Origin: Methanogenium sp. S4BF
Lineage (GTDB): Archaea; Halobacteriota; Methanomicrobia; Methanomicrobiales; Methanomicrobiaceae
Direction: 5' to 3'
Length of the DNA: 40,000 bases
Assembly (NCBI RefSeq): GCF_029633965.1
Contig: NZ_CP091277.1
Span: forward strand, 763,940 to 803,939
Made by a program: the position numbers and the translations under genes. Numbering within the stretch: the first letter of the stretch is position 1; each line of letters begins with the position of its first letter. Below the pieces are notes generated by a model. The model ran no database searches. It saw only the letters and a program-made list of their open reading frames with translations, and was not told the DNA's origin. Shown one piece after another: positions 1-17,280 of the stretch.

Positions 1-915
1 GGATATGTCACAGGTACTACTAGATATAAATTAAACCAAGGTTCAATGAAAAAAATCCCTATTATTCTCCCCCCTCTCGCCGAACAGCACCGCATCGTCA
101 CCGCCATCGAGGCGCTCTTCGCCCGGCTGGACGCGGCGGAGGCACGGCTGGAGCGGGTGCCGGGCATTGTGCATCAGTTCCGACAGGCCATTTATTGGGG
201 GCTTCTAACAGATTTTGAAAACTCAAAAAAATATGTAATTAAAGATGTAATTGTTGGCACACCCCAAAACGGGTTATACAAACCGTCTTCAAAATATGGG
301 GCTGGGACGCCAATAATTAGGATCGATTCATTTTATGAGGGTAAAATTACGGATCAAATAATACTAAAAAGATTGGACTGTTCTGAATCAGAAATAAATA
401 AATTCCAACTATATGATGGAGATATTTTAATTAACCGAGTAAATAGTCTTGATTTTCTCGGTAAATGCGCCCTTATTGAAAATATTGAAGAAAATACTGT
501 TTTTGAATCGAATATGATGCGGATAACCCCTAATACAAACATCATCAATCAAAAATATCTAAATCATGTCCTATGCAGCCCTTTTATAAAAAATCAGATC
601 TTGAAAAAGGCAAAAAATGCTGTCAATCAATCGAGTATAAATCAAAAAGATGTAACTTCTTTAGTTATTTATTGTCGCCCTCTCCCCGAACAACATGAAA
701 TAGCCCGGCGCGTCGATGCCCTCTTTTCTCTCGCCGACCAGATTGAGGCAAATGTCGCAGCTGCGAAGGACCGTACCGCAAAACTCTGCCAGTCAATTCT
801 TGCCCAGGCATTCTCCGGGCAGCTGGTGCCAACCGAGGCGGAACTGGCCCGGCGGGAGGGGCGTGAGTATGAGGATGCAAATACTCTTTTAATGAGAATC
901 AAGGCAGAAAAATGA
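1..915 (+). CDS. hsdS: Type I restriction-modification specificity subunit HsdS, 5' end cut by the window edge
   Basis: The frame is open from nt 1 (GYVTGTTRYKLNQGS precedes the listed Met). Two HsdS conserved spacer helices flank a variable target-recognition domain: PPLAEQHRIVTAIEALFARLDAAEARLE, and RPLPEQHEIARRVDALFSLADQIEANVAAAKDRTAKLCQSILAQAFSGQL. The conserved parts look GC-rich and the TRD (about 190-665) looks AT-rich. Confidence 0.85.
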   Translation, partial: GYVTGTTRYKLNQGSMKKIPIILPPLAEQHRIVTAIEALFARLDAAEARLERVPGIVHQFRQAIYWGLLTDFENSKKYVIKDVIVGTPQNGLYKPSSKYGAGTPIIRIDSFYEGKITDQIILKRLDCSESEINKFQLYDGDILINRVNSLDFLGKCALIENIEENTVFESNMMRITPNTNIINQKYLNHVLCSPFIKNQILKKAKNAVNQSSINQKDVTSLVIYCRPLPEQHEIARRVDALFSLADQIEANVAAAKDRTAKLCQSILAQAFSGQLVPTEAELARREGREYEDANTLLMRIKAEK

Positions 916-1484
916 ACACAATATTTCTAAATTTCAGAGCAGATATTTTTTCAGTTCATCCAAACATTATGAAGTTTGAAAAGGAAATCTGTCATTTCAC
1001 TCCTTTTGATGGTGAGAAAGTCGCGGTTTTCTCTCAGGATGGAAAACTGATTAAAGAATTTGAGGCCGAGTATAACTTGAATAGGGAATTAATTACTGAA
1101 ATTCCTGTAGAATTTGATTCGGAATTAAGCGGAAACATTCTTACTCACAATCACCCATCCGGCACATCATTTGGCAAAAATGATTTAATGACGGCTTCCT
1201 CCATCCAATTGCAAGAAATTCGTGTTGTAGGAAAATGTGGTTTGTATTCGATGAAACCAAAGGGAAATATGTGGCCGATTTCAGAGGATATGGGAAATTA
1301 TTTTGATGCAATTAATACTAATTCTAAATTTCAATCAGAACTTAACGATATCCAATTTTCCGCTGATTTCTATTTAAATTCCAAAGATATTTATCTCGAC
1401 ATGTTACGAATCAAATCAGAACTTCGTTGTGAAAAAATAGCTGGTGCATTTGGACTTGACTATAAAAAATCCAGTTGGGGGTAA
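912..1484 (+). CDS. RadC-like JAB/MPN-domain protein (divergent metalloprotease motif)
   Basis: The start overlaps the hsdS stop (ATGA, 912-915). The motif ILTHNHPSGTSFGKNDL matches the RadC/JAB HNHPSG signature. An upstream GEKVAVFSQDGKLI segment could supply the conserved Glu. The spacing to the Asp is one residue shorter than the canonical HxHx7Sx2D. Confidence 0.55.
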   Translation: MNTIFLNFRADIFSVHPNIMKFEKEICHFTPFDGEKVAVFSQDGKLIKEFEAEYNLNRELITEIPVEFDSELSGNILTHNHPSGTSFGKNDLMTASSIQLQEIRVVGKCGLYSMKPKGNMWPISEDMGNYFDAINTNSKFQSELNDIQFSADFYLNSKDIYLDMLRIKSELRCEKIAGAFGLDYKKSSWG

Positions 1485-1628: not shown

Positions 1629-1820
1629 TTAGACGTATCTACTGACAATCCCGATAACACCAAGTCCTCCAAAGATAAGCCCAATACCAATTCCACCCCA
1701 AATTGCGAGTTGTCCTGCTGCGGCGTTAACGTTGGTGGCACATAATAAAATTCCAGCTATGATAAGGACGGTTACAATTCCCGTTCCTCCCATACCAAGT
1801 CCAAAAATACTTTGAGTCAT
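1629..1820 (-). CDS. Small glycine-zipper membrane protein (2 predicted TM helices)
   Basis: The minus-strand sequence reads gggaggtgaacATG, a strong Shine-Dalgarno-like GGAGGTG 3 nt before the ATG at 1820. The listed ORF starts 6 nt earlier at a GTG. The product is almost entirely G/I/L/A/V with repeated GxxxG (GLGMGGTGIV, GGIGIGLIFGGLGVIGIV). Confidence 0.5.
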   Translation of the reverse strand: MTQSIFGLGMGGTGIVTVLIIAGILLCATNVNAAAGQLAIWGGIGIGLIFGGLGVIGIVSRYV

Positions 1821-2058
1821 GTTCACCTCCCGTTCAATTTTTTACGTGTTTTTTCCTGGAACCTGAAACATCAATAAAAGTTTTATTATAGCATCATTAA
1901 CATCTTTAGCATTGTAAGAATATGGCTGGAATTGAAAGGACTATTCACATTATCCCACTTGGTCATGAAATTGATCGTGCGGTAATCACATTTGATGATA
2001 CGACAGTTGATCAGGTTTACATCCTTACCGGGCTCAAAGAACGAATTCCCGAATTGAT

Positions 2059-2718
2059 TTGAGCAAAAAACAACTCTATTACGCTAAAAAAGTAAGAGAA
2101 AAATTACAGGAAAAAGGCATATCTGTTACATGTATTCATGTGAACCTCTTCGATTTACGTGAAGTAATGAAAACAATTTCAAAAATAATCGTAGAAGAAA
2201 AAGCGAAAAATAACCGAATTTTTGTAAACATGTCAGCTGCAGGGAGGCTAACATCAGTGGCAGCAACACTTGTTGGGATGGCTCATGATGTTCAGGTGTA
2301 TTACGTCCATGCTGATGAATATCCTGATGATGAAAAAATCAGAGAAGTTCACGGTTTAAGCATTTGTTCTTCTCAGGAAATTACTCAATTATCAAATTTT
2401 AAAATTGTAATGCCTGACTCTGAAGGTTTAGAAATACTTCTTTTTCTCACGCAAAGAGAGACCGCCAGAATGAGCGATATTTTGGAAATGATGCATGATA
2501 AAAATATTGAAGGTTTCGAGGAGGATTTTAAAATGATTGAACAGTTTAAGAAAAAAAGAAGTGTCCAGAGCAGGCAATTAATGAAACTGGATAAAACGAT
2601 TATTGCTCGGTTAGAAAAAAATGGATTTGTTTTTCGAACCAAAAAGGGGAGAGCTACGTATGTTTCAATAACCGAATCAGGAATTTATGCAGCACATATC
2701 AGTGGGATGATGGAATAA
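2059..2718 (+). CDS. Csa3/CARF-like Rossmann domain plus C-terminal wHTH regulator, apparently missing its first beta-strand by frameshift
   Basis: NMSAAGR fits the CARF-type [DN]-x-[ST]-x3-[RK] loop. The C-terminus (LEILLFLTQRETARMSDILEMM ... IIARLEKNGFVFRTKKGRATYVSITESG) reads as a winged helix. The expected N-terminal strand (MAGIERTIHIIPLGHEIDRAVITF..VDQVYILTG) is encoded at 1922-2062 in a different frame. The listed start is a TTG. Confidence 0.5.
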   Translation: MSKKQLYYAKKVREKLQEKGISVTCIHVNLFDLREVMKTISKIIVEEKAKNNRIFVNMSAAGRLTSVAATLVGMAHDVQVYYVHADEYPDDEKIREVHGLSICSSQEITQLSNFKIVMPDSEGLEILLFLTQRETARMSDILEMMHDKNIEGFEEDFKMIEQFKKKRSVQSRQLMKLDKTIIARLEKNGFVFRTKKGRATYVSITESGIYAAHISGMME

Positions 2719-2809
2719 TTACTGTTATTAATAAACACAATATCATTTTTCAGAAGAATGCTTCGCTATGCGTTTAGTTCAACAGACACGATAAAAGTGA
2801 TTTTCAATA

Positions 2810-2838
2810 GTGGCATTTTTTGTAACTAACTATAACCC
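2810..2838. repeat. Diverged copy of the casposon right-end terminal inverted repeat (right terminus of an older, left-lying element)
   Basis: gtggcattttttgtaactaactataaccc matches 17158-17186 (gtggcgtttttcacaactaactataaccc) at 25/29 positions in direct orientation. The preceding aata is also shared. Confidence 0.75.
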
Positions 2839-2852
2839 TACCCAAAAATGCG
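2839..2852. repeat. Target-site duplication, left copy
   Basis: tacccaaaaatgcg versus gaaccaaaaatgcg at 17187-17200 (12/14 identical). It lies directly outside the left terminal inverted repeat. Confidence 0.7.
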
Positions 2853-2881
2853 GGGTTATAGTTAGTTGTGAAAAACGCCAC
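2853..2881. repeat. Casposon left terminal inverted repeat
   Basis: gggttatagttagttgtgaaaaacgccac is the exact reverse complement (29/29) of 17158-17186. Confidence 0.9.
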
Positions 2882-3069
2882 TTTTACTGAATTTGCAAAT
2901 TTATTTTTCATCTCATCTTTGTCTTGATATTTCCCATAAATAATATAATGAAATTAATTTATGGCATATAAGGACATCCAAGAAATTATACTACCCATCA
3001 TACTACTAACAATACTTATAATATTATATCATTATAAATATTTAATGTCTGAAACGATAATATATTAGT

Positions 3070-4023
3070 ATGTCAAACCACCCGAAGGTTTTCATTAGTC
3101 ATGCTAGTGAGGATAAAGAGAGATTTGTTGTAAAGTTTGCAGAAAGACTGCGTTATGATGGGATAGAAGCTTGGTTAGATAAATGGGAAATATTGCTGGG
3201 TGACAGTCTAGTCCAGAAAATATTTGATGAAGGTTTAGAGCAATCTGATATCATTGCAATAGTAATATCAAAATATAGTATAACTAAAAAATGGGTTAAA
3301 GAAGAGCTTGATTTAGCAGTATATAGAAAAATTGAGGGTAAATGCAGAATAATTCCAATCATTATTGATGATTGCATTGTACCAGAATCAATCAAGCACA
3401 CACTACATGTGAAAATTCAAAATCTCAACAACTATGATGCTGAATACAATGAAATTCGTTCCACAATATTTGGTGAAACAAAAAAGCCTCCACTAGGTGA
3501 ACTTCCACAATATCTAACTGCCGTTCAGATGCACATTGACAAGTTTACACATACTGACAACTACATCGCGGGCATTATTTGTGAAAAGGCATTAGAAGAT
3601 GATTATCCATTTTTTGTAACTCCCACTCAAATATTGCCAATTGTTAGTGGAAATGGCATAACAGAGGATGAATTTTATGATACTATTGAAATAATGGATG
3701 GACGGGGGTATATTGAAGCTGAACAATGTTATGGTGGAGAGATTCCAGCAATTAAAATATCAACATTATTACTTGAAAAGTATTGCAGACAATGCATTGA
3801 TGATTATGACAATAAAGTGGTATCTGTGATTTCAGCCATCGTCAATGAAAATAAGTTGGAAAATTCTGAAATTGCTGCTGAATCTGGAATCAAGCAATCA
3901 ATTGTATCACACATTCTAATCTATCTGGATAATATTGGAAAAATTAAAACCACAACAGCACATGAAGGAGTAGTACTAGTCCACCCCAATAATATGGCAG
4001 AACTGAAGCGATTACTGCGATAG
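3070..4023 (+). CDS. TIR-domain protein with an uncharacterised C-terminal (wHTH-like) domain
   Basis: The N-terminus KVFISHASEDKERFVVKFAERLRYDGIEAWLDKWEILLGDSLVQKIFDEGLEQSDIIAIVISKYSITKKWVKEELDLA follows the prokaryotic TIR pattern: FISH-x-x-x-D, W-D with G-D-S-L, a vvlS strand, and W-x-x-E-L with the candidate catalytic Glu. The C-terminal ~180 aa end in a helix-turn-helix-like stretch (SEIAAESGIKQSIVSHILIYLDNIGKIK). The gene is visibly AT-rich. Confidence 0.8.
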   Translation: MSNHPKVFISHASEDKERFVVKFAERLRYDGIEAWLDKWEILLGDSLVQKIFDEGLEQSDIIAIVISKYSITKKWVKEELDLAVYRKIEGKCRIIPIIIDDCIVPESIKHTLHVKIQNLNNYDAEYNEIRSTIFGETKKPPLGELPQYLTAVQMHIDKFTHTDNYIAGIICEKALEDDYPFFVTPTQILPIVSGNGITEDEFYDTIEIMDGRGYIEAEQCYGGEIPAIKISTLLLEKYCRQCIDDYDNKVVSVISAIVNENKLENSEIAAESGIKQSIVSHILIYLDNIGKIKTTTAHEGVVLVHPNNMAELKRLLR

Positions 4024-4162
4024 AATGAAAATATAATCTATTTTCTGAGGAAGATTAAAAATAATCCTCATGATTACTCTAAGTTGTACTCATCTGGAAT
4101 GACATATTAAATAATTACTTTCACACCACGCGGATAAATATTAAAATATATTATTCTGATCC

Positions 4163-4447
4163 ATGGTTATGCATAAATTATTTAACATCTTCTTTGAAGA
4201 TCTACGAGTAACAATTTGTTTACTCATTGTTCTAGCTGCTCTTGCAGCATTTTTTGGCGCAATCGAACCAATTACAGAAAAATATGTTCAGGATGAAAAT
4301 TCAAAAGAAAACATCGAAAATATTGAATCAATTTCAATAAACGGATTCTCTCTTCTTCTTACTATCAGTGGAATTGGAACTGTTTTGGCTGTGATAGCTT
4401 GGTTTGCGGGTTTATTTGATGGAATCATAAGTATGATAAAAATATAG
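4163..4447 (+). CDS. Small two-TM membrane protein, hypothetical
   Basis: This 94-aa ORF has two hydrophobic helices (VTICLLIVLAALAAFFGAI and FSLLLTISGIGTVLAVIAWFAGLF) separated by an acidic loop. It is AT-rich like the upstream TIR gene. No clear ribosome-binding site is visible. Confidence 0.35.
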   Translation: MVMHKLFNIFFEDLRVTICLLIVLAALAAFFGAIEPITEKYVQDENSKENIENIESISINGFSLLLTISGIGTVLAVIAWFAGLFDGIISMIKI

Positions 4448-4451
4448 AAAT

Positions 4452-5963
4452 TCAACTCTTTTTCAACAAATCCCGCAACTCATCAAGATTAACCAATATC
4501 TGCTTCTCAATACCCTCAATTGTCTCAATGATCACTTCAGGAGGGTCATACTCAATCTCTTCATATTCAATCTCCTTATATCGCGAGATCGAGAGGTCAT
4601 AATTATTCTCCTTCACTTCATCATACGGCACATAGAAGCACTTGCCCTTCCGGTCTTCAGGCACCTCATCCCTCCGGCTCCTAAAGCGCTCGATGATATC
4701 AGGGATGTCACCCTTCCCGTCAATGAGCGTCCGTTTGTCATCCAGTGAAAATCCGTCTGCCTCCATATCATAGAACCAGACTTTCTCCGTTGTCCCACCC
4801 TTCGCAAAGATGAGCACAGCGGTGGAGACCCCTGCATACGGCCTGAATACACCGGACGGCATGGAGACAATACCTTCGACCTGGTTCTCCTCAAGGAGCA
4901 TCTGGCGGAGTTTCTTATGCGCCCGTGAACTCCCGAACATGACACCATCCGGCACGATTACGGCACACCGCCCTCCAATCGTCAGGAGATGAATCATCCG
5001 CTCCACAAACAGAAGCTCCGTCTTTGTCGTGGAAAGGCTCAGGCTGTCGTTAATATCACTCTTGTCGATACTCCCCTTGAACGGTGGATTGGCAAGCACC
5101 ACTGAATACCGCTCCTCCTCATTGTAGAGCTTGGAGAGTGTATCCTTCTGCTCAATCTTCGGCGCCTTGATCCCGTGGAGCATCATGTTCATGAGCGAGA
5201 TGCGGGCCATCGTGGAATCAAAATCATAGCCATAGAACGTATCGCTCCAGAGCTTCTCCCAGTGCCGCTGTTCAGTGATATTGTCCCCGATGAGATTGTG
5301 GTATTCGCCCTCACTGTCCACCTCCAGCATATCGGGACTGGTGTATTTCCGGATAATGTACTCATAGGCGTTGATCAGGAACCCTGCTGTTCCACAGGCA
5401 GGGTCACAGATACGGTCATTGACATCCGGTTCGACCAGTTCCACCATCATCCGGATGATATGCCGGGGCGTCCGGAACTGTCCGTTTTTCCCTGCGGTGG
5501 AGAGTTGGGAGAGAAGATACTCGTAGATGTCACCCTGCGTATCACGATTCTGTGCAGTGATGTCCATCTCATCGATAATGGCAACAGCCTCCTGCAGGAG
5601 GGACGGCTTTGGGATGATGAAGACCGCGTCCCGCATCTGGCGTGCGAAGAGTGTTTTCTCCCCGTTGTGCAGGTTCTTGATGAACGGGAAGACAACATCA
5701 CGGACATGCACGAGCATCTGTTCAGCAGGATAGTGCTTCCAGTTTGACCACCGGCACTCATCCTGTCCCTCAAAGATCGAGGTATAGGCGATGTCCCGTG
5801 CCCGTGCACGGTTCTGCTCGACCACATCCATGTCCTCCAGCCGCTTCATGAAGATGAGATAGGACATCTGTTCAATGGACTGGAGGGGGTTGGACATACC
5901 ACCGCTCCAGAAGCGATCCCAGAGGGTGTCTATCTTTGATTTAAGTTCGGGGGCGAGTTTCAT
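4452..5963 (-). CDS. hsdM: Type I R-M N6-adenine DNA methyltransferase subunit HsdM
   Basis: SAM-binding motif ICDPACGTAGFL, catalytic motif LANPPFKGS, and a typical HsdM N-terminal domain (KIDTLWDRFWSGGMSNPLQSIEQMSYLIFMKRLED). The start overlaps the hsdS stop by 4 nt. Confidence 0.92.
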   Translation of the reverse strand: MKLAPELKSKIDTLWDRFWSGGMSNPLQSIEQMSYLIFMKRLEDMDVVEQNRARARDIAYTSIFEGQDECRWSNWKHYPAEQMLVHVRDVVFPFIKNLHNGEKTLFARQMRDAVFIIPKPSLLQEAVAIIDEMDITAQNRDTQGDIYEYLLSQLSTAGKNGQFRTPRHIIRMMVELVEPDVNDRICDPACGTAGFLINAYEYIIRKYTSPDMLEVDSEGEYHNLIGDNITEQRHWEKLWSDTFYGYDFDSTMARISLMNMMLHGIKAPKIEQKDTLSKLYNEEERYSVVLANPPFKGSIDKSDINDSLSLSTTKTELLFVERMIHLLTIGGRCAVIVPDGVMFGSSRAHKKLRQMLLEENQVEGIVSMPSGVFRPYAGVSTAVLIFAKGGTTEKVWFYDMEADGFSLDDKRTLIDGKGDIPDIIERFRSRRDEVPEDRKGKCFYVPYDEVKENNYDLSISRYKEIEYEEIEYDPPEVIIETIEGIEKQILVNLDELRDLLKKS

Positions 5964-7189
5964 GGTATTAGTTCTCCGGTGAATGCTTTTGATTGAAGTA
6001 ATGCAAATAAATCAGCAATTTCCTGATTAGCTTTAGATTGATCTGTAAAGGCAGAATCAATGTGTTTTAGAGATTGAATGAATTTTTCTTGAAATAATAC
6101 CGGTGGCAACACAACAACACATTTCCTCAAGTCTTTAGTGTTAAAGCTAGCTTGATTCACTGCAGGTTTTGTGATCCTCTTTATTTGGTTCATAAAAAAT
6201 GTGGTTTTAAATTGTGCCACCAAAAAAAATGGGTTTACAAGCTTTCTATTGACATTAATTCGAAATATATTATGACCGACAATAGCTGGAGAATATTCTC
6301 CTTGATATACGGCACTTTTGCCTATTCGGCTAAGACTATTCACGTAATTTAACAGGATATCATCTTTCTTTAAAACATATCGAGTGATGTCTTCAGGCAC
6401 ATCAATGTACTTCAATTTTGTCGCTTTAATGGACATTCCATCATGAATTTCTCCTGAAGTAATGTTGACAGGCCCTTTTCCTTCTGCATTCAATCTTCGT
6501 GATGGGCCAGCTTCAACTTTCTGAATTATACTACCCAGAGTTACTTTTTCCCATCCCTTAGGATTCGTCACCGGGTCACCGAACATCTCCAGAAACACGC
6601 TCTGCACCAGTTCCTGCGTGAGCGCATCCGCATCCGCCCGCAGGCGCTGCGTTGCCTCTGCTTTTTCAAGAATGGCGACAATCTTGCGCTGGGTTTCCAG
6701 ATTTGGAATTGATAATTGTATTTTTCCCAATTCTTTTCTGGGAATACGTTTGCGTGTCGTTCCCCTAGAACGCCGAATAATTTCTTTTCTACATTCTGGA
6801 GAATTAATTGCATATTTCAGCCAGTTCGGATCTATCAATGGATTATCCGGACGCAGAATACAAACATCAACAGCTGTAATACATTTCTTCTCATTTCCAG
6901 GGAAGATGCATGCACGTCCTATTGGATCAGGCATACGAGAAATTAAAATATCCCCCTTTTTTAGGAAAGTGCAATTCAATTCTATCGCTTTTTCTAATGT
7001 TAAAAATTTGTTTGAATTAAATTCAAAATATCCATCTTTAATATCTGCAAGCTGTATCAATCGGACTTGACCAGATGGATCCTGATCCTTACTTTCAACC
7101 CAATCCCCATCCGTGAAAATTCCTTCACTTGATGTCAAGTTAACTATAGAATATTGAATACTTTCTTTATTATTCTCAATTATATTCAA
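5960..7189 (-). CDS. hsdS: Type I R-M specificity subunit HsdS
   Basis: Two target-recognition domains are separated by a central conserved helix (ETQRKIVAILEKAEATQRLRADADALTQELVQSVFLEMFGDP). The C-terminal conserved helix ends ...LLQSKAFTGELIP. It sits between hsdR and hsdM. Confidence 0.88.
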   Translation of the reverse strand: MNIIENNKESIQYSIVNLTSSEGIFTDGDWVESKDQDPSGQVRLIQLADIKDGYFEFNSNKFLTLEKAIELNCTFLKKGDILISRMPDPIGRACIFPGNEKKCITAVDVCILRPDNPLIDPNWLKYAINSPECRKEIIRRSRGTTRKRIPRKELGKIQLSIPNLETQRKIVAILEKAEATQRLRADADALTQELVQSVFLEMFGDPVTNPKGWEKVTLGSIIQKVEAGPSRRLNAEGKGPVNITSGEIHDGMSIKATKLKYIDVPEDITRYVLKKDDILLNYVNSLSRIGKSAVYQGEYSPAIVGHNIFRINVNRKLVNPFFLVAQFKTTFFMNQIKRITKPAVNQASFNTKDLRKCVVVLPPVLFQEKFIQSLKHIDSAFTDQSKANQEIADLFALLQSKAFTGELIP

Positions 7190-7192
7190 TCA

Positions 7193-10030
7193 TCACGCCT
7201 CCGCAACAAACAGTTCCCGTTCCAGTCCCTGACATATGCCAATGAACGCCCTGAGATCGCCCTCGTCAAACATCGGCAGCGGTGCGTTGATGCCAAAATT
7301 GGTGAACGGGGCATCCCAGAGATCTCTCATTTCTATATGCTTTTTGCGCATAAATACCGTCTGAATCGTCCTGATGAAGTGGAGCTGGTCGGCGGTGTAG
7401 TGCTTGTTGTTCTCAGCAATGAAGGTCTGGAACGCCTCCTCGATCTGCTCTTTCGGGTCGGGTGCCTTGTAGAGTCCCAACACAGATTTGATGAAATCAA
7501 CAAGCGTCCCCCGTGGCTGCCGGTAGCCTTTCTGCAGGACTTCCCCGGTGATGTCCACCCCTGCCTCGGTGAGGGTCTCCTCAAGACGGGAGAGGTCGGT
7601 CTCCGTGATTGTCTCATCGTTTGCGATCTTTTGGATGACCGGGTCTTCGGTTGCCATCTCGCGGATTCGTTCTTCCACCTTCTTGACAAACGCGGTGACA
7701 TAGGGAGGGGTGTCCTCGTTCACCTCCCAGATGCTGCGTTCCTCAATCACATCGCCCATGTCGATGACAATCGTCTGGGGCGTCTCCTTGGACATATACT
7801 TCATCAGCGGTGCGATATCAGAAACAAGCATCCGGGTATCCTCGAACGAGACACCCTTCCAGAACGATCGGGAGAGCACGTCATCCAGTTGCTCTTCCTT
7901 CTGCCGGACTTTTTCGAGGTTGCGGGGGAGGAGGTCAACCATCTCAGCGATGGCCTTCTTCTGCCGCTCTATCTCCTTGTCATTCCCTTCTAAGACAGCA
8001 AGCGCAAGCCGTTCGGTCTTGATCGTAAAGGACGCCTCCTTGAGATTGACACCCGTCTGGTAGCGCATCAGGGGCATCATATGGGATGTCAGGTATTCAA
8101 CCGGGTCAACGGCAATATTGTCCCAGAGTTTGGGAGAGAGTGCTTTTGCAATCTCCTGTTCGTGTTCCCGCACACTCACGGAGTCGGAAGGCAGGGCACG
8201 GATATCGTCCTCAATTTTTGCCCGGATCACCGCAGCACGTTCCCCATCTCCCGCCTGTATCAACCGGTCAAGCTGCTTTACCCGCAGGAGAAAGATCCGA
8301 CTGGTAATAGCTTCGATGGGTTCGTTCTTCACCCCTTCCGGGTTCATGTTCCAGTAATCAAAGTTGTTCCAGAAATCGAAGACCTTGAAATACTCCTTCT
8401 TCCCGTTCGGGAGCCAGTCACGGTGTTTGCAGGCCGCATCCGCCCTTGTCCCCCTCCCTAGCATCTGCCAGAACTTGATCCTGGAGAAGACCGGTTTTGC
8501 AAAGACAAGGTTGCAGACCTCCGGTACGTCAATGCCGGTGTCCAGCATGTCGACCGATATGGCAACACGGGGGAATGACTCCTTCTCAAAGTCATGGATG
8601 AGTGCCTGTGCACGGGAATCCTCAGAGACAATAATGCGTGCGAGGTTCCCCTTGTATTCAGGATAGAGGTCATTGAACGCCTCATGAAGCCGGTTCGCAT
8701 GCTTCTTTGATATCGCAAAGAAGATCGTCTTCGCAGGAAGTGTGCCAGTCTCATCCATCTGGCAGTTATCCATGAACTCCCGGACAATTGCTTCAGACGT
8801 GCCCTTCACCGCGATCTTCTTCTCCAGAACAGAGCCATCGAAATCGATCTCGTCCGGGTCGATGCCCTGCTCGATGAGGCGGTTACGTTCGGTCTCGCTC
8901 AGGTCTGAGGGCTTCACCCCTTCAATCTGGAAGTGCGTCTGCGCACCCATGATATTCTTGCGGAAGTCACAGAGGATACCGTCTCGCACTGCCTCCTCAT
9001 ATGAGTAGAGAGCGGTTGGTGCCTGATCATCACACTGGAAGAACCGGAAGGTGTCACGGTCAACAAGGTCTGCCGGTGTTGCAGTCAGCCCGATCTGGAT
9101 GGCATCCAGATACGTGAAGACATCCCGCCATTTATTGTATATACTGCGGTGTGCCTCATCTGAGATGATGAGGTCAAACTCACCAGGCGAGATAAGATAC
9201 TGCCCGTTCTCATCTTTTTGGGTATAGATCTCCTGAAACGTCTGGATGGTGGAGACATAGAGCCGCTTCTCCTTGTTGAAGTTGCCGTGCAGGATTTTGT
9301 CCTTCGCCTCCTGCGGGAAGAACTCCTGAAACCCTTTGTTCCATGCCTGATCCCGCAGTGCCTTTCTGTCTGCGAGGAAGAGCACCCGGTGAGCACGGTT
9401 CTCCTGCATCAGGGCATCGATAATTGCCATCGCGACACGAGTCTTGCCCGTGCCCGTTGCCATCACAATCAACGCCTTCCGGTGTCCCTTCTGGATGTGC
9501 TCCACTATCCGTTTGACATTCTCGATACTCTTCGGGCGGTCAACAATATCGGTATTGACTCCTCTTGGTGTGTCCGGCTGAACCTGCTCGTTCTGGAAGC
9601 GAAGCCGCTCAAGGTCTTTGCGGGCGTAGAACCCGGTCACCAGACGGGGAGGATACCGCTGCCGATCCCAGAACCAGATCTCATAACCGTTTGTGAGAAA
9701 AATGAAGACATCCCGGCCCGTTTGCCTTTTGATGTCGTCTGCATATTTTTCTGCCTGCTTTTGACCGATATTGGGGTCTTTTGATGTCCGCTTTGCCTCG
9801 ATGATGGCAAGGGGATTATTCAGACTGTCCAGCAGGAGATAGTCAGCATATTTACTCTCACGATCATTCTTGAGTGTTTCATCAACAGTTTTGTAGGAAC
9901 AGGCATTGAAATCAGACTGCTTTGTATCAACCTCAGGGATGACATGCGAACGACTGTTCACATCCCAGCCCTGCTCCCTGAGTTGGACATCAATCTTTTG
10001 TTTCCTCGTCTGATGTTCATTGAGATCCAT
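7193..10030 (-). CDS. hsdR: Type I R-M restriction endonuclease/translocase subunit HsdR
   Basis: N-terminal PD-(D/E)xK-like nuclease motif (ADYLLLD...PLAIIEAKR), SF2 helicase Walker A (VMATGTGKTRVA) and DEAH box (LIISDEAHRS). The protein is 945 aa. Confidence 0.92.
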   Translation of the reverse strand: MDLNEHQTRKQKIDVQLREQGWDVNSRSHVIPEVDTKQSDFNACSYKTVDETLKNDRESKYADYLLLDSLNNPLAIIEAKRTSKDPNIGQKQAEKYADDIKRQTGRDVFIFLTNGYEIWFWDRQRYPPRLVTGFYARKDLERLRFQNEQVQPDTPRGVNTDIVDRPKSIENVKRIVEHIQKGHRKALIVMATGTGKTRVAMAIIDALMQENRAHRVLFLADRKALRDQAWNKGFQEFFPQEAKDKILHGNFNKEKRLYVSTIQTFQEIYTQKDENGQYLISPGEFDLIISDEAHRSIYNKWRDVFTYLDAIQIGLTATPADLVDRDTFRFFQCDDQAPTALYSYEEAVRDGILCDFRKNIMGAQTHFQIEGVKPSDLSETERNRLIEQGIDPDEIDFDGSVLEKKIAVKGTSEAIVREFMDNCQMDETGTLPAKTIFFAISKKHANRLHEAFNDLYPEYKGNLARIIVSEDSRAQALIHDFEKESFPRVAISVDMLDTGIDVPEVCNLVFAKPVFSRIKFWQMLGRGTRADAACKHRDWLPNGKKEYFKVFDFWNNFDYWNMNPEGVKNEPIEAITSRIFLLRVKQLDRLIQAGDGERAAVIRAKIEDDIRALPSDSVSVREHEQEIAKALSPKLWDNIAVDPVEYLTSHMMPLMRYQTGVNLKEASFTIKTERLALAVLEGNDKEIERQKKAIAEMVDLLPRNLEKVRQKEEQLDDVLSRSFWKGVSFEDTRMLVSDIAPLMKYMSKETPQTIVIDMGDVIEERSIWEVNEDTPPYVTAFVKKVEERIREMATEDPVIQKIANDETITETDLSRLEETLTEAGVDITGEVLQKGYRQPRGTLVDFIKSVLGLYKAPDPKEQIEEAFQTFIAENNKHYTADQLHFIRTIQTVFMRKKHIEMRDLWDAPFTNFGINAPLPMFDEGDLRAFIGICQGLERELFVAEA

Positions 10031-10123
10031 GCGTTACTCCATTGTGGATAGATATTAAATGAAAAGTTTATTCAAGTCAATAATTGACTCGTTTGGCACC
10101 ATACATCAATGTTATGGAATCTG

Positions 10124-10146
10124 TTTGATATTGCTCAATAATATCA
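10124..10146. promoter_or_regulatory. Perfect 8-bp stem / 7-nt loop inverted repeat between cas1 and hsdR
   Basis: ttgatatt-gctcaat-aatatcaa lies in the AT-rich 186-bp spacer between the cas1 stop (10217) and the hsdR start (10030). It could be a terminator or an operator, and the function is not established. Confidence 0.25.
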
Positions 10147-10216
10147 ACAATACTTCAACGTCAACACCACAAATTGGTTGAATTACCTCAACAGAAAAGA
10201 AAAATGAGAAAGAAAC

Positions 10217-11440
10217 TCAGACAGATAACGTCTCTTTTAGTTGATCCCATACCATCAACCGTTCAACAACGTGTTGATTGAGGGAAAACGGCTTCTCCGA
10301 CTCTGCGTTCTTTTTCATATAATGCAATGAACCTTTTGAGAAACCCAGTTTCTTCCAGTCAGCATACGAAATGCTGAGTATCTTCCTGCGTATCTCATCC
10401 GTATCAACCCTGTCAACCTGATACTCCGGCTTCATGAAACTCACCGACTGTTTCTTCCCGGTCAGATACTGCGCCAGCTCCCTGCCCTTCAGCACCATCA
10501 CATAACTCCACATCAGCTCTTTGCCCTGATACTCAACCGTCTTGTTGAACCATGCGTTGACCTCTTCTGTCATCTTGCGTGCACCCGTGGGCCGTAATCT
10601 CAGTGCATAGCTCTCCGTCCTGATAAAATCCTTCGCGGTCATCGCATCGCGCTCAACGAGGTTGATAACTGCCAGGTCAACAAGAAACCGAAACAACTCC
10701 TGCATATCATAAGCCAGACTGTTCTTGCCGGATTGCATCTCATGAAGGAATCCCACATGTGCATCAAGACCAACACTGTTGATGACCCTGAGACACTCTG
10801 CTTCGAGAAGGGCATACCCATAATTCAGCATGCAGTTGACCTGATCTCCCGCTCCTGAGGGCCGTGTGTGGTAACGTCCCGTCCGGCTCTCAAACTCATA
10901 CTTCTCAGGGATGACTTTGGCAAACTGTTTCCAGTAGTGCTGGGCAACGGCACCCTCAACTCCCATCACTTCCCGGATCAACTTTGCGTCTTTCAGACTC
11001 TTTGGTTCATAGGGAATCACAGGGTCAACACCGGGATACCGCTGGTGCAGATAGTCAAGGACGATCTGTGTGCGGTCAAACTTGGATTCGATGAACTTCT
11101 TCGCCAGTTTCAGTCGCAGTTTCTTATCGTCAAATGCATGGTATTGTACAAACTTCGTCTTCACCTGCACACTCTCCGGAGGGAGCATTGTGGTGAGCAT
11201 CGTTCCATCCCAATCAAGAATGGACACCTGCACATTGTGTTTGACAAGCCACCGGATGGCTTCAAGACTGAGGTTGCCGCTCCTCCCGTAGATCACAATG
11301 GAATCGATATCAATGCGCTGTGGATGGAAGACATACTTCGCAGGCTCCTCTTCGGTAGAGAACCGTCCGTCCGTGATATGAAGGTGTGCACGATCCACTT
11401 TCATGCTGATGCCATGCCCGTTGAGAAGCAGGAACTTCAT
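10217..11440 (-). CDS. cas1: Cas1-family casposase (Cas1 integrase core plus C-terminal HTH)
   Basis: Cas1 catalytic signature residues are present: Glu in REVMGVEGAVAQHYW, His in LDAHVGFLHE, and an acidic pair in SLAYDMQELFRFLVD. It also has NYGYALLE. The C-terminal extension (ILSISYADWKKLGFSKGSLHYMKK) reads as an HTH, as described for casposases. Confidence 0.9.
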   Translation of the reverse strand: MKFLLLNGHGISMKVDRAHLHITDGRFSTEEEPAKYVFHPQRIDIDSIVIYGRSGNLSLEAIRWLVKHNVQVSILDWDGTMLTTMLPPESVQVKTKFVQYHAFDDKKLRLKLAKKFIESKFDRTQIVLDYLHQRYPGVDPVIPYEPKSLKDAKLIREVMGVEGAVAQHYWKQFAKVIPEKYEFESRTGRYHTRPSGAGDQVNCMLNYGYALLEAECLRVINSVGLDAHVGFLHEMQSGKNSLAYDMQELFRFLVDLAVINLVERDAMTAKDFIRTESYALRLRPTGARKMTEEVNAWFNKTVEYQGKELMWSYVMVLKGRELAQYLTGKKQSVSFMKPEYQVDRVDTDEIRRKILSISYADWKKLGFSKGSLHYMKKNAESEKPFSLNQHVVERLMVWDQLKETLSV

Positions 11441-12351: not shown

Positions 12352-12377
12352 TATTATCTTTATATGATATAATATGT

Positions 12378-12409
12378 GCTATCATATTAGCTATCATTAC
12401 TAACGATAG
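12378..12409. promoter_or_regulatory. Candidate operator in the divergent casposon control region
   Basis: gctatcat occurs twice (12378-12385 and 12390-12397). An imperfect 19-bp palindrome ctatcattactaacgatag (12391-12409, 16/19 self-complementary) lies between the divergent wHTH-cas1 and RHH-polB gene sets, in AT-rich TATA-like sequence. Confidence 0.35.
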
Positions 12410-12432
12410 TGTCTGCTCTCCTTCATGAATCT

Positions 12433-12582
12433 ATGAAACCAAAAGAAAAGACCAACAAACTGGTCATTTCTGTTTCGCCGTATCTGAAGGCGAAGATCGT
12501 TGAGACCGCAGACCGCTATGGATGCTCCCAGGCTGAAGTCCTCAGGATGGCGTTCATCCGGATGCTGGAGGCAGACAGATGA
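12433..12582 (+). CDS. Ribbon-helix-helix (CopG/MetJ-like) DNA-binding protein, 49 aa, below the ORF-track cutoff
   Basis: Manual translation gives MKPKEKTNKLVISVSPYLKAKIVETADRYGCSQAEVLRMAFIRMLEADR. It has a beta-strand (KLVISVSPYL) followed by two helices, the classic RHH layout. Its stop overlaps the next ATG (ATGA at 12579-12582). Confidence 0.6.
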   Translation: MKPKEKTNKLVISVSPYLKAKIVETADRYGCSQAEVLRMAFIRMLEADR

Positions 12583-13220: not shown

Positions 13221-13225
13221 GAGCG

Positions 13226-13600
13226 ATGCATATGGACAAAAATACCTACCGAAAAACAACAGAGAAGATGAAACGGTCAGGGCAGACCGGACACTGCTGC
13301 GTAATGTGTGGAGAAGATAATCCAGCCCTCCTTGAGATGCACCATGTCGATGGAAGAGCGGCATCTGAGAAGACTGTTCCCCTCTGCAAGAACTGTCACG
13401 CAAAGGTCACAATGGAGCAGAACCGTTTCCCTCCGAAAGCCCGTGCTGCCAATGGCCTTCAGGCAGAACAGATTGCATTCTGGCTCCTGAGCCTTGGTGC
13501 ACTTCTGAAATATGTTGGTCAGTCACTCATCGAATTTGCCCATGAGGTTCAGCAGAATGCCGGCGTTAGCAGTGCGTGGATACACTCGAAAACTCAATAA
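13226..13600 (+). CDS. HNH endonuclease
   Basis: CCVMCGEDNPALLEMHHVDGRAASEKTVPLCKNCHAKV gives CxxC ... HH ... CxxCH, the zinc-finger-braced HNH motif. Confidence 0.85.
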   Translation: MHMDKNTYRKTTEKMKRSGQTGHCCVMCGEDNPALLEMHHVDGRAASEKTVPLCKNCHAKVTMEQNRFPPKARAANGLQAEQIAFWLLSLGALLKYVGQSLIEFAHEVQQNAGVSSAWIHSKTQ

Positions 13601-16241
13601 AAAGGGGAAGGGGAAAGGGAAAGCATCCTCATATCCCGACCACCCGCTCAGGCATTCCCGTGTCTTGGTCTTTGATACAGAGACCACTATTGACTGGTTT
13701 CAGAATCTGAAGATCGGATATTTCCAGATCTATCAGGACGACATCTTACAGCATCACGGCCTGATCAACAATAATGCACATCTTGACGAACGTGAACGAA
13801 AGACCCTGAAACGGTATGCAGAGCGTAATTCAATTTCTCTATACTCGCTGAACGAGTTCGTTGATGATGTGTTCTACCGGGAAGTCTTTGACCTGAAAAC
13901 CCTCTGTATTGGGTTCAACCTCCCGTTTGATCTCAGTCGGATTGCTCACAAGGCAGCTCATTCACGCGGACGGAACAAAGGAGGGTTCACCCTCACCCTT
14001 TCGGAAGACCGCATGCAGCCTCCCATTATCGTAAAACAGCTGGGAAGCGCTTACAGCATGAAGTTCAGCTCGACCAAGAAAAACATGAAAAAAGACTTTT
14101 TTGGCGGGTATTTTCTGGACGTGCAGACACTGGCCGAGGTAATGCTTCAGGCAAAACGTGTCTCCCTTCAGCGGGCGGGTGAGATGCTCAACATCAGCCA
14201 TGAGAAATATACCGGAATCTCTCATGGAAGGGTGACGGAGAAATATATCGAATACAACATCCGGGATGTCGAAGCGACCTATGAAGTCTATCGCAGGCTT
14301 GTGCAGGAACTGGATCTCTTCCAGATTGATATCCCTCTCACGAAGGTGTTCAGCTCAGCATCCATCGGAAAGTATGCCCTCAAACAGATGAGTGTCACAC
14401 CATTTCATCAGCAGAACCCTGACTTTCCGGATGCTATTCTCGGTAATATCATGTCAGCGTATTACGGGGGAAGAACGGAGTGCAGGATACGTAAACAGCC
14501 GACCAAGGTGTCGGTGCTTGACTTTACAAGCATGTATCCGACCATCACCATGATTCTGGGTCTCTGGCCTTATCTCATTGCAGATCGTATCGAATCAGTG
14601 GATGCGACTGAAGAGATACAAGCGCTCCTCTCTTCTCTCAATCTTGCTGATTTGCAGAACCCGGATATCTGGAAGGACTTCTGTGTTCTTGTCAAGCTGC
14701 GACCGGATGATGATATCCTTCCGGCGAGGATGGACTATAAAGGGGATGACTCTCCCTATGTGGTCGGACTCAATTACCTCTCCAGTGAAAAGGAGATGTG
14801 GTATGCTCTGCCGGATGTCATCGCCTCGGTGCTACTCACCGGGAAAGTGCCTGATATTCTTGAGGCTGTGCGGTTTGTGCCGGTCGGACAACAGACCAGC
14901 CTTCAGAAGACACAGATCCATAGTGTTGATATTGATCCTCGCAGGGACAATCTGTTTCAGGTGCTGGTTGAAAAGCGGCAGGAGATTAAACAAGACCTCA
15001 AGACCATCTCCAAAGATGATCCAGAACAGCTTCACCTCTCCAGCCAGGCACAGGCCATCAAGATTCTTGTCAATGCGATGAGTTATGGCATCTTCATTGA
15101 ACTCAATCCCGAAGATAAGAAAAGCGCTTTAGAGGTGAATGGGGTTTACTCCTTCACGACTGAAGAGAACCGGCATGAGAAAGAAGGGAAGTATTTCCAC
15201 CCTCTTATGGCGGTAATGATTACCGCAGGGTCACGTCTCTTTCTCGCAATGGCTGAGGCGAAGGTGCTGGAGCTGGGTGGGCAGCATGCCTACATGGATA
15301 CGGATAGTATCTTTGTCCCGCCCGACTTTGCACAGCCTATCCTTGACTTCTTCCAGCCACTGAACCCGTATAGCATTGATATCCCTCTGCTCAAGCCTGA
15401 AAAGGAGGATATGTGGTTCTATGGCATCTCCTCCAAGCGGTATGCTCTCTATTATCTTGACGGTCAGGAGATCCGGTTCATGGAAGGAGAGCGGTCGTAT
15501 AAGCTGCATGGTCTGGGACATCTGGCGAATCCGTTCCCGAACAACGTGAAGGACTGGCAGGCAGAAGTCTGGCAGGACATCCTGCGTATGCACTATGGGT
15601 TTGTTTCATCGATGGAGATCTATGAGAAGTATTCAAAATTTTATGCGGTTTCCCGTCTTTCGGTCTCAACCTCTCATGTATGGAAGAGGTTTGATAGTTT
15701 CAATGAAGGGAAAGCATGGGATGAACAGATTAAGCCGTTCAATTTCTATCTTGCAGGCTTTAAAACGGAGGATGAGAATGGTGTGCCTGTTAAACCGCTA
15801 TGTCCCTTCTCCAAAGACCCGCAGACAATTGTTCACAGGGAGTTCATCGATTATCAGACAGGGGAGAACAAGCAGGGTTCGCACTACTTCAGAGCACTCT
15901 GCCAGACCATTCTTGATTATGCCAATCACCCGGAAAACAAGTTCGATGGGGGTGTTGGTCTGCTTGAGAGGAGACATATTGTGGCTGATGATGTGACTCA
16001 CATCGGAAAGGAAGCTAACAATATTGATGATCAGGCACTGGAAGTTCGGAAGGCTCAGAGGTTTGTCGATAAGGCTGATGTCATGAAGACGATTCTTTCT
16101 ATGTCTCAGAAGATAGCTGAAGAATGTGGGGTGGATAGGAAGACGTTCCAAAGGATGAAGCAGAGGATTCAGGAGAAAGGCGATTTAAATTTGAAGACTC
16201 CAGCTGTTAAAAGGTTGTACTCAAAAAGGTTAATGAATTAA
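13512..16241 (+). CDS. polB: Family B DNA polymerase (casposon PolB, protein-primed-like clade)
   Basis: ExoI VLVFDTETT and ExoII-like YNIRDVEATYEVY. Motif A is VSVLDFTSMYPTI, motif B is AIKILVNAMSYGIFIE and motif C is HAYMDTDSIFV. The start is uncertain: in-frame candidates are ATG 13512, 13542 and 13557 and GTG 13572, all overlapping the HNH gene end. Confidence 0.92.
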   Translation: MLVSHSSNLPMRFSRMPALAVRGYTRKLNKKGKGKGKASSYPDHPLRHSRVLVFDTETTIDWFQNLKIGYFQIYQDDILQHHGLINNNAHLDERERKTLKRYAERNSISLYSLNEFVDDVFYREVFDLKTLCIGFNLPFDLSRIAHKAAHSRGRNKGGFTLTLSEDRMQPPIIVKQLGSAYSMKFSSTKKNMKKDFFGGYFLDVQTLAEVMLQAKRVSLQRAGEMLNISHEKYTGISHGRVTEKYIEYNIRDVEATYEVYRRLVQELDLFQIDIPLTKVFSSASIGKYALKQMSVTPFHQQNPDFPDAILGNIMSAYYGGRTECRIRKQPTKVSVLDFTSMYPTITMILGLWPYLIADRIESVDATEEIQALLSSLNLADLQNPDIWKDFCVLVKLRPDDDILPARMDYKGDDSPYVVGLNYLSSEKEMWYALPDVIASVLLTGKVPDILEAVRFVPVGQQTSLQKTQIHSVDIDPRRDNLFQVLVEKRQEIKQDLKTISKDDPEQLHLSSQAQAIKILVNAMSYGIFIELNPEDKKSALEVNGVYSFTTEENRHEKEGKYFHPLMAVMITAGSRLFLAMAEAKVLELGGQHAYMDTDSIFVPPDFAQPILDFFQPLNPYSIDIPLLKPEKEDMWFYGISSKRYALYYLDGQEIRFMEGERSYKLHGLGHLANPFPNNVKDWQAEVWQDILRMHYGFVSSMEIYEKYSKFYAVSRLSVSTSHVWKRFDSFNEGKAWDEQIKPFNFYLAGFKTEDENGVPVKPLCPFSKDPQTIVHREFIDYQTGENKQGSHYFRALCQTILDYANHPENKFDGGVGLLERRHIVADDVTHIGKEANNIDDQALEVRKAQRFVDKADVMKTILSMSQKIAEECGVDRKTFQRMKQRIQEKGDLNLKTPAVKRLYSKRLMN

Positions 16242-17017: not shown

Positions 17018-17039
17018 AACAATGAATTATTCACTTAGC

Positions 17040-17047: not shown

Positions 17048-17157
17048 TGAAAGTCAGATTATAATGCAGTCATGTTTTCAAAAAAAAGATTGTTTAGGTA
17101 AATTTAGATTGTCACATCCTAAATGGATGACTTTGAGTAAAAGGGTTGAACAAAATA

Positions 17158-17186
17158 GTGGCGTTTTTCACAACTAACTATAACCC
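17158..17186. repeat. Casposon right terminal inverted repeat
   Basis: gtggcgtttttcacaactaactataaccc is the exact reverse complement of 2853-2881. Confidence 0.9.
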
Positions 17187-17200
17187 GAACCAAAAATGCG
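17187..17200. repeat. Target-site duplication, right copy (overlaps the tRNA-Leu 3' end)
   Basis: gaaccaaaaatgcg matches 2839-2852 at 12/14. It covers the oligo-T tract downstream of the tRNA, the discriminator base and the last 3 acceptor-stem nucleotides. Confidence 0.7.
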
Positions 17201-17280
17201 AGGGGAGGGATTCGAACCCGCGAACTCCTACGAGACTGGGCCCTAAACCCAGCGCCTTTGACCGACTCGGCAACCCTCGC
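17197..17280 (-). tRNA. tRNA-Leu (anticodon UAG), class II with long variable arm
   Basis: The reverse complement reads GCGAGGGTTGCCGAGTCGGTCAAAGGCGCTGGGTTTAGGGCCCAGTCTCGTAGGAGTTCGCGGGTTCGAATCCCTCCCCTCGC plus discriminator A. It has a 7-bp acceptor stem and an anticodon stem CTGGG/CCCAG with loop TTTAGGG, giving anticodon TAG. It also has a long variable arm and a GTTCGAATC T-loop. CCA is not encoded, and a TTTTT tract follows. Confidence 0.9.

Follow-up and report, generated by a model that had tools for sequence, protein, structure and literature searches.

A TIR gene with a tandem winged-helix module as casposon cargo in Methanogenium sp. S4BF: a plausible single-protein defence gene

We analyzed a 40,000-nucleotide (nt) stretch of the genome of Methanogenium sp. 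S4BF (NZ_CP091277.1, positions 763,940 to 803,939; hereafter the window, in whose numbering positions are given), in which a casposon carries a gene at 3070-4023 for a TIR protein with a C-terminal tandem winged-helix module. Comparisons of sequence and predicted structure suggest that this is a plausible single-protein TIR defence gene. It joins what appears to be a known effector to an undescribed, portable, sensor-like module and, by analogy, would work most like the sensor-fused TIR effectors. The gene is AT-rich accessory cargo of a family-2-type casposon at a tRNA-Leu gene, where it lies beside a type I restriction-modification (R-M) system. As casposon cargo it is unreported; in a full-text literature search, no paper was found to mention casposons together with a TIR domain. 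TIR NADases coupled to sensors are central to innate immunity in prokaryotes and eukaryotes alike, and each new sensor module is another way of detecting infection. Casposons are transposons related to the CRISPR adaptation machinery, and the presence of a TIR gene in one of them, next to a type I R-M system, contributes to the picture of these elements as carriers of defence cargo. To our knowledge, almost nothing has been learned of archaeal TIR biology beyond the in vitro activity of TcpO.

TIR domain and C-terminal module

Residues 7-128 of the protein matched the Pfam family TIR_2 (PF13676) with 91.2 bits against a cut-off of 28 (expectation value E=8.9e-26), and the match covered profile positions 1-120 of 122. 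The catalytic glutamate was E79, the second glutamate of KKWVKEEL, which lies four residues after W75, is encoded by codon 3304-3306, and aligned with E208 of AbTir and E230 of BtTir. In an alignment of 40 family sequences, H11, D15, G44, D45, W75, and E79 were invariant (40/40), and S46, L47, K73, and E78 were at least 90% conserved. The BB-loop, G44-D45-S46-L47 (GDSL), was intact. The nearest solved TIR domains by profile were those of BtTir (7uxr), AbTir (7uwg and 8g83), PdTIR (3h16), and TcpB/BtpA, with E from 2e-23 to 7e-17; the family profile also matched the TIR domain of Cat1 at E=9e-13, and TIR-APAZ was related at about 1e-6. Foldseek comparison of the AlphaFold2 model gave a probability of 1.00 to 7uxu, 7uxr, 8g83, and 3h16, with target-normalised template modelling scores of 0.64-0.76, and the N-terminus adopted the flavodoxin-like TIR fold. 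The original prediction, made from the DNA sequence alone, had placed the N-terminus in the TIR superfamily and had named a glutamate in KKWVKEELDLA as the candidate catalytic residue; both assignments held.

In AbTir, the residues E208, W204, G174, S176, L177, and K202 either are needed for full NADase activity, which is lost or lowered when they are mutated, or make contact with the substrate mimic. The E208A variant is inactive, K202 touches the diphosphate and L177 the base of the mimic, and the active site spans two TIR domains. All six residues have conserved counterparts in the casposon protein, which indicates that an NADase-type active site is intact. AbTIR and the archaeal TcpO-TIR deplete NAD+ in a manner that depends on the catalytic glutamate. 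Judged by profile and alignment, the N-terminus is a genuine TIR domain whose active site is complete and conserved, and its AbTir-type active-site residues predict NADase activity.

A short conserved linker, KPPLG, leads from the TIR domain to the C-terminal module. The full-length AlphaFold2 model had a mean predicted local distance difference test score (pLDDT) of 89, and residues 145-317 modelled alone reached a pLDDT of 94 and a predicted template modelling score (pTM) of 0.88. Both models contained two winged-helix units (about residues 159-231 and 246-305), with a helix linking them and, after the second, a short conserved helix (ELKRxL, within a PELKRxL tail). Weak matches of HTH_9, TrmB, MarR, and ArsR type fell at residues 237-296, and N259, L312, and R314 were conserved in the second unit and the C-terminal helix. 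The original description of this half as ending in a helix-turn-helix-like segment was borne out, and the model adds to it the two winged-helix units and the conserved tail.

The module was net acidic across the family, with a mean charge of -5.7. For the first winged-helix unit the net charge was -11 in the casposon protein, and the family mean was -4.8. The conserved acidic residues of the module were D163, E172, D204, E207, and E236, and conserved basic residues were few. This acidity favours protein or ligand binding over classical DNA binding, and it is more likely that the tandem winged-helix module would bind a protein or ligand derived from an invader or from stress than that it would bind DNA.

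Searches for a specific relative of the module were made by several routes. No Pfam, NCBIfam, PADLOC, or PHROG model covered it. Profile comparison with the PDB returned only weak matches of MarR, PadR, and RPC type (E of 0.07 or above). With the model of residues 145-317, Foldseek found no specific solved relative, only generic tandem winged-helix proteins (ESCRT-II subunits, Pol III RPC34, Stn1, SelB, and ScpB; best E=4.8e-3). Matches to the full-length model were dominated by the TIR domain and were uninformative on the C-terminal half.

A profile of the C-terminal module searched against 1.84 billion representative proteins matched 1098 representatives at E<=1e-3, 802 of them at E<=1e-10. 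Most of the matches listed were about 315 amino acids (aa) long, the size of the TIR family, and longer ones carried other N-terminal domains. A domain scan was made of 20 longer or atypical proteins. Six were Ser/Thr kinase fusions (P0138, P0163, P0181, P0189, P0196, and P0271), among which P0138 additionally carried an AbiJ_NTD3 domain and a zinc ribbon; P0150 was a caspase fusion and P0195 a cytidine deaminase fusion. The remaining scanned proteins carried TIR, including N-terminally extended forms and one, P0169, with the reversed order. In all eight kinase, caspase, and deaminase fusions the module stood at the C-terminal side.

The attachment of one non-catalytic module to several effector types is the pattern of single-chain immune sensors, and this is the main support for reading the protein as a sensor-effector. 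These findings suggest that the module is a portable sensor or regulatory part of conflict systems. The proposal that a single protein acts as both sensor and effector, made at the outset, thus gains comparative support from the module's fusions and from the solitary occurrence of the gene described below. A wider and more doubtful possibility, which we put forward tentatively, is that the acidic tandem winged helix is an unnamed portable sensor that defines a superfamily of single-polypeptide immune receptors of bacteria and archaea, wired in turn to a TIR NADase, a Ser/Thr kinase, a caspase-like protease, or a cytidine deaminase, and that casposons are among the vehicles moving such genes between archaea. 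A trigger found for one protein could then explain the whole set.

Casposon context and distribution of the family

The casposon occupies 2853-17186 (14.3 kb), and the TIR gene is the first gene inside its left end (Table 1). That the gene sits at a casposon left end had been predicted, and the end is now more sharply defined by terminal repeats, a 14-nt target-site duplication (TSD), and the tRNA-Leu gene. The same left-arm sequence occurs in related elements at loci L082, L083, L087, and L088. At 2806-2885, one 14-nt TSD separates two casposon arms that point towards each other, which indicates that two elements integrated in tandem at this tRNA-Leu site; tandem casposons are known to share one TSD (PMC4779613). 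As in family 2 casposons of Methanosarcina and relatives, the element has a core of Cas1, PolB, and HNH, a TSD, and a target in the 3' part of a tRNA-Leu gene. That family likewise forms tandem arrays split by one TSD and has short terminal inverted repeats, 31-59 bp as reported and 33 nt here (PMC4779613). The cargo differs, consisting here of a complete type I R-M system, a small membrane protein, and the TIR gene. The family 2 assignment is based on gene content and target site.

The TIR gene had a GC content of 34.4% (26% at third codon positions, GC3), and a 94-codon open reading frame (ORF) downstream of it had 31.6% (GC3 22%), against 48-53% (GC3 57-67%) for hsdM, hsdR, Cas1, and PolB; the flanking chromosome on the right-hand side had 52.8%. 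Both ORFs are thus more AT-rich than the core and the flank, as had been noted originally. Two further AT-rich patches lay inside the 48-53% GC core, namely hsdS at 5960-7189 (37.5%) and, at the right end, a 259-aa ORF on the minus strand at 16238-17017 (34.7%, no family). These suggest that several cargo segments, and not only the TIR cassette, were independently acquired or are fast evolving.

Comparison with sister casposons delimited the cassette. In L083 the order was arm, a relative of the 94-aa ORF, hsdM, hsdS, hsdR, Cas1 (85% identical), and ORF300, and in L087 and L088 it was tRNA 3' end, arm, small ORF, and hsdM; none of the three had a TIR gene. Relative to these loci, the window contained about 1.2 kb of extra DNA (about 2886-4123) between the arm and the conserved upstream region of the small ORF, which is the TIR cassette. 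The presumed promoter region of the TIR gene, 2886-3069, was without counterpart in the TIR-less casposons L083 and L087, and positions 2947-2992 were 83% identical to the region 5' of the gene of the closest TIR relative in L082.

The 94-aa ORF encodes a protein with two transmembrane (TM) segments. It follows the TIR gene on the same strand after 139 nt, and its database copy begins at the third codon (92 aa). Four metagenomic relatives aligned over the full length at 61-69% identity and without gaps, and the ratio of nonsynonymous to synonymous substitution rates (dN/dS) was 0.12-0.24, which together indicate a real gene under purifying selection. The loop KENIENIESISING was strongly conserved. 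On the contigs of all relatives, the small ORF stood 3-4 nt tail-to-tail with an hsdM 87-91% identical to that of the window. The TIR gene and the small ORF had separate conserved upstream regions. In the closest TIR relative (L081/L082, 62% identity), the TIR gene lay straight against an hsdM remnant without the small ORF: positions 4413-5072 of the window aligned to L082 2602-3262, and positions 4024-4412 had no counterpart there. The ORF matched no family in Pfam (E<=0.1), PADLOC, NCBIfam, or PHROG, and a SLATT identity in particular was rejected, no SLATT match appearing at that Pfam threshold. By this comparative evidence, the ORF is an independent small membrane protein of the casposon lineage, always beside hsdM, and not a partner of the TIR protein.

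At L082 730-8662, a tRNA-Leu gene and a degenerate arm preceded a 169-aa ORF and the TIR gene, and beyond these lay a split hsdM remnant and the gene for a 1542-aa protein with only weak AAA ATPase matches; next, a duplicated partial tRNA and a well-preserved arm opened a second element. The locus looks like a decayed casposon that retained the TIR gene.

A search of 5.8 billion protein clusters returned 911 related clusters at E<=1e-3, mostly bacterial, and the top 120 relatives were all about 315 aa long and aligned over their full length at about 40% identity. Relatives at about 40% identity were scattered patchily among numerous bacterial phyla and occurred in a few archaea. Members of this abundant family already carry the generic annotation 'TIR domain-containing protein'. 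Plasmid carriage was rare (1 of 72,556 records, with generic annotation), and no full-length copy was found among sequenced phages. Cultured bacterial members include Vibrio cincinnatiensis DSM 19608, Pseudomonas fluorescens PS655, Marinomonas, and Azospirillum, and they make the defence hypothesis directly testable.

Gene neighbourhoods were compared at 82 loci. A scan of one genome per species gave 216 relatives, from which 80 loci were taken, nearly all bacterial from many phyla and three archaeal, and the closest relative (L081/L082) completed the set. Clustering of the flanking ORFs at two stringencies revealed no conserved partner. The largest family common to the flanks, within 3.5 kb, was that of R-M methylases, at 5 loci, followed by ABC-type ATPases, integrases, and other TIR proteins. 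Among immediate neighbours, 134 of 150 were singletons at E<1e-3, and together these neighbours covered 128 Pfam families; the commonest were other TIR/ThsB proteins (4-5), type IIG R-M and mad genes (3-4), AbiEii-like ATPases (3), and integrases or transposases. None of the 82 loci held a relative of the 94-aa ORF, of the CARF3 protein encoded to the left of the casposon, or of the left-hand ORF190, and none of the other 80 had Cas1, PolB, or arm sequences. The TIR/winged-helix gene is therefore solitary, and its surroundings vary from locus to locus and abound in mobile-element and defence genes.

Some neighbours recurred among these loci. At five bacterial loci the immediate neighbour of the TIR gene was a protein of one shared cluster (Table 1); the single member inspected, in L007, was a second TIR protein with an N-terminal winged-helix-like region. 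L061, L066, and L069 had in common a ThsB-like TIR protein and an uncharacterised protein, both encoded near the TIR gene.

Comparison with known systems and rival explanations

The closest TIR proteins by both sequence and structure were the AbTir/BtTir/PdTIR/TcpB(BtpA)/TcpO clade, whose members are 2'cADPR (cyclic ADP-ribose) producers. They share with the casposon protein the catalytic glutamate, the tryptophan four residues before it, the lysine two before that tryptophan, and the GDSL BB-loop, and NAD+ depletion by archaeal TIRs of this type is known from TcpO. Their architecture differs, with an N-terminal coiled coil, a C-terminal TIR domain (AbTIR 157-292, TcpO-TIR 204-341), and no tandem winged helix; in the casposon protein the TIR domain is N-terminal and the winged-helix module follows it. 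The logic we propose, a sensing domain joined to an assembly-activated TIR NADase, is that of Cat1 (CARF-TIR), TIR-SAVED, TIR-STING, SPARTA TIR-APAZ, and TIR-NLR. The candidate sensor here is not CARF, SAVED, STING, APAZ/Ago, or a STAND NTPase, but an unnamed acidic double winged helix. A nucleotide-second-messenger synthase or Argonaute partner was neither present in the casposon nor conserved in the 82 loci. As the original prediction had stated, no ThsA-like, STING, Argonaute, or CBASS gene occurred among the casposon ORFs (Pfam, PADLOC).

Membership in Thoeris, PDC-S66, bSEFIR, and the CARF-TIR systems was considered and rejected. Thoeris ThsB is likewise a TIR protein proposed to sense infection directly, and there was a weak match to PADLOC ThsB1 (E=1.7e-12); however, ThsB lacks the C-terminal module, and the ThsB_TIR profile scored 19.5 bits against a cut-off of 21.2, NCBIfam Thoeris type III ThcB4 scored 25 against 220, and no adjacent ThsA-type effector (SIR2, Macro, or SLOG) was found in the casposon or as a conserved partner in the 82 loci. 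The best PADLOC matches were PDC-S66 and bSEFIR (E=7e-26 and 5e-21), single-gene TIR/SEFIR candidates, but only the TIR part matched (PDC-S66 positions 151-240 of 282, where TIR is C-terminal; bSEFIR 35-213 of 412) and the architectures differ. Cat1-like or CARF-linked signalling was rejected because the TIR protein has no CARF domain and the neighbouring CARF3 gene is frameshifted, outside the element, and absent from the 82 loci. Pseudomonas aeruginosa PumA, studied as a virulence factor, has the same outline: about 300 aa, an N-terminal TIR domain (1-136), a C-terminal domain without detectable homology, and a low-GC genomic island. Its primer-deduced termini (MAVFISYS...; IEDVDG from residue 137 onward; ...ATPWPRA) did not match those of the family (PKVFISHASEDK ... 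PELKRxL), and on this comparison of termini it is treated as an architectural analogue.

We propose that the protein is a solitary single-polypeptide TIR enzyme with a sensor-like tail that acts in defence by depleting NAD+ and is carried as casposon cargo. We hold the anatomical part of this explanation with high confidence and consider the explanation as a whole somewhat probable. The chain would consist of an N-terminal TIR domain of the AbTir/BtTir/TcpB 'cyclase-type' NADase clade, the KPPLG linker, the acidic double winged helix, and a conserved basic end helix. The tandem winged-helix module would be the sensor or an autoinhibitory part, either sensing a trigger or keeping the TIR domains apart. 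The trigger would allow TIR-TIR assembly, as AbTir, SARM1, Cat1, SPARTA, and TIR-SAVED need for catalysis. NAD+ would next be cleaved in the active site that the two TIR domains form between them, probably with release of a 2'/3'-cADPR-type product as well, and NAD+ depletion would arrest growth of the infected cell (abortive infection). The NADase activity, the trigger, the activation by oligomerisation, and the defence phenotype are all predictions.

Several points weigh against this explanation. The helix pattern of the second winged-helix unit is ArsR/MarR-like and may be compatible with DNA binding. The full-length model had a pTM of 0.58, and it fixes neither the interdomain arrangement nor any autoinhibition. 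TIRs of this clade are also capable of signal synthesis or NAD-RNA decapping, and a receptor for the TIR product may be encoded elsewhere. The PADLOC models matched the TIR part alone, so that the protein is not a recognised system, and the defence-island association consists of counts without a background control. Our literature search found no paper on a family combining TIR with a winged helix and likewise no experiments on this exact family.

The original prediction proposed a candidate compact two-gene module. In such a module the TIR protein would sense or signal and the 94-aa two-TM protein would be the membrane effector, as in pairs of TIR and SLATT-like pores. The two ORFs are indeed co-oriented, 139 nt apart, and both AT-rich, the smaller one is a real gene under purifying selection, and TIR-type effectors are sometimes paired with two-TM SLATT proteins in conflict systems according to the literature. 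The co-occurrence check nevertheless failed: relatives of the small ORF stood beside 0 of 82 TIR homologues, a small co-oriented two-TM ORF of any kind lay downstream at 2 of 75 homologue loci, and the closest TIR relative is without one. In all five contexts of its relatives the small ORF abuts hsdM, in three of them right after a casposon arm without a TIR gene. With separate conserved upstream regions and no SLATT or other family match, the two-gene module was rejected as highly improbable. Contrary to the original statement, the small ORF was also not the only co-oriented neighbour, since the CARF3 gene lies upstream on the same strand (1922-2718), though outside the casposon. That gene enters the second rival, in which the TIR protein is a dedicated synthase of a cADPR isomer or similar signal whose receptor is encoded elsewhere, either Thoeris-like in trans or formerly the paired CARF3 winged-helix protein. 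The TIR clade includes 2'cADPR and 3'cADPR producers, the CARF3 gene is sensor-type, directly upstream, and co-oriented, the winged-helix profile of CARF3 proteins weakly matched residues 245-296 of the TIR protein (PDLC01852, E=0.006), and ThsB-like genes occur at a few homologue loci. We consider this rival unlikely, because a frameshift disrupts the CARF3 gene, because two terminal repeats and a TSD stand between it and the TIR gene, so that their adjacency results from tandem insertion, and because CARF3 relatives occurred at 0 of 82 loci. A ThsA, SLOG, Macro, or SIR2 partner was neither conserved nor present in the casposon, and the ThsB_TIR match fell below its cut-off. The CARF3 gene was accordingly rejected as a partner.

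TIR domains can also serve as scaffolds, and the protein could be a DNA-binding regulator or a maintenance factor of the casposon or island. The second winged-helix unit would then bind DNA, and the TIR domain would mediate oligomerisation, sense NAD, or serve as an addiction toxin that stabilises the element. The resemblance of that unit to ArsR/MarR/TrmB-type units and the position of the gene next to a transposon end would fit such a role. It is improbable in view of the net acidic module with few conserved basic residues, the strict conservation of catalytic residues that a pure scaffold would not need, and the joining of the same module to kinase, caspase, and deaminase, a typical effector repertoire. 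Most homologues, moreover, lie outside casposons, with Cas1, PolB, and arm missing from the other 80 loci, and sister casposons do without the TIR gene. Finally, the TIR domain might act mainly on NAD-capped RNA (deNAMing or decapping) and modulate RNA stability instead of cleaving free NAD+. Removal of nicotinamide from NAD-RNA by bacterial TIR proteins and one archaeal TIR protein is described in PMC10937652. Nothing in the sequence of the casposon protein singles out that activity, the protein has no RNA-binding features, and its module is acidic; we regard this action as very improbable. The synthase, regulator, and NAD-RNA explanations are each less supported than NAD+-depleting defence by a solitary sensor-effector.

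Feature coordinates and the left-hand element

Table 1. Features of the casposon, its left flank, and the recurrent neighbours at related loci
Feature	Position	Strand	Evidence or remark
TIR and tandem winged-helix protein, 317 aa	3070..4023	+	ORF; full-length family matches; AlphaFold2 pLDDT 89
TIR domain, residues 1-135	3070..3474	+	TIR_2 profile, conserved residues, Foldseek
Upstream region of TIR gene, presumed promoter	2886..3069	+	AT-rich TATA-like stretch at about 3032-3046
Winged-helix unit 1, residues 159-231, acidic	3544..3762	+	secondary structure of models
Winged-helix unit 2, residues 246-305, and conserved C-terminal helix ELKRLL	3805..4020	+	models; weak profile matches
Small two-TM membrane protein, 94 codons	4163..4447	+	probable start 4169; two hydrophobic segments
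CARF3-type CARF-winged-helix pseudogene (HFX_2341_N and DUF6293_C)	1922..2718	+	PADLOC CARF3 E=2.6e-83 from profile position 46
Right-end-type arm of second (tandem) element to the left	2806..2838	.	85% complementary to 2853-2885; orientation of right arm
Left 14-nt TSD copy TACCCAAAAATGCG, common to neighbouring tandem element	2839..2852	.	12/14 identical to 17187-17200
Left terminal inverted repeat	2853..2885	.	33 nt, 97% complementary to 17154-17186
hsdM	4452..5963	-	Pfam N6_Mtase, HsdM_N
hsdS	5960..7189	-	Pfam Methylase_S
hsdR	7193..10030	-	85% identical to HSDR_N/ResIII/EcoEI_R_C protein of L083
Casposase Cas1	10217..11440	-	Cas_Cas1 221 bits, E=2e-65; PADLOC Cas1
Small HNH-like ORF (ORF124)	13226..13600		weak HNH match; precedes PolB
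Family B DNA polymerase PolB	13512..16241	+	DNA_pol_B_2, DNA_pol_B
Right terminal inverted repeat	17154..17186	.	33 nt, 97% complementary to 2853-2885
Right TSD copy GAACCAAAAATGCG	17187..17200		overlaps 3' end of tRNA-Leu
Target tRNA-Leu	17197..17280	-	right TSD runs into its 3' end
Shared-cluster neighbour of TIR gene	L007 4629-5861; L023 5130-5990		upstream of TIR gene
Shared-cluster neighbour of TIR gene	L016 7010-7840; L035 3969-4856; L074 6948-7505		downstream of TIR gene

Of the element to the left, only the right end lies within the window, with cargo at roughly 916-2805 and a GC content of 35%. The CARF3 gene, the 190-aa ORF (ORF190), and a 64-aa ORF belong to this neighbouring element; two terminal repeats and the TSD lie between the CARF3 gene and the TIR gene. 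The first 46 codons of the CARF3 gene stand in another frame, owing to a single frameshift near 2055-2062 beside an A-run. The conceptually repaired protein matched HFX_2341_N over positions 2-120 of 120 at E=2e-34; the truncated ORF reached 5e-23.

Three further ORFs were observed in this region. At 46-915 on the plus strand, opposite to the casposon hsdMSR genes, lies a 289-aa type I specificity subunit (Methylase_S) with an AT-rich centre, which probably belongs to the left-hand element and may have a part in specificity shuffling. The start of the 190-aa ORF (912-1484, plus strand) overlaps the stop of this half-size hsdS (ATGA); the ORF had no match in Pfam, NCBIfam, PADLOC, or PHROGs, and it contains THNHPSG, which we take to resemble the JAB/RadC metalloprotease motif. 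The 64-aa ORF (1629-1826, minus strand) encodes the glycine-rich hydrophobic sequence GIGLIFGGLGVIGIV, which matched no family, and its product may be a small membrane protein that belongs to the left element.

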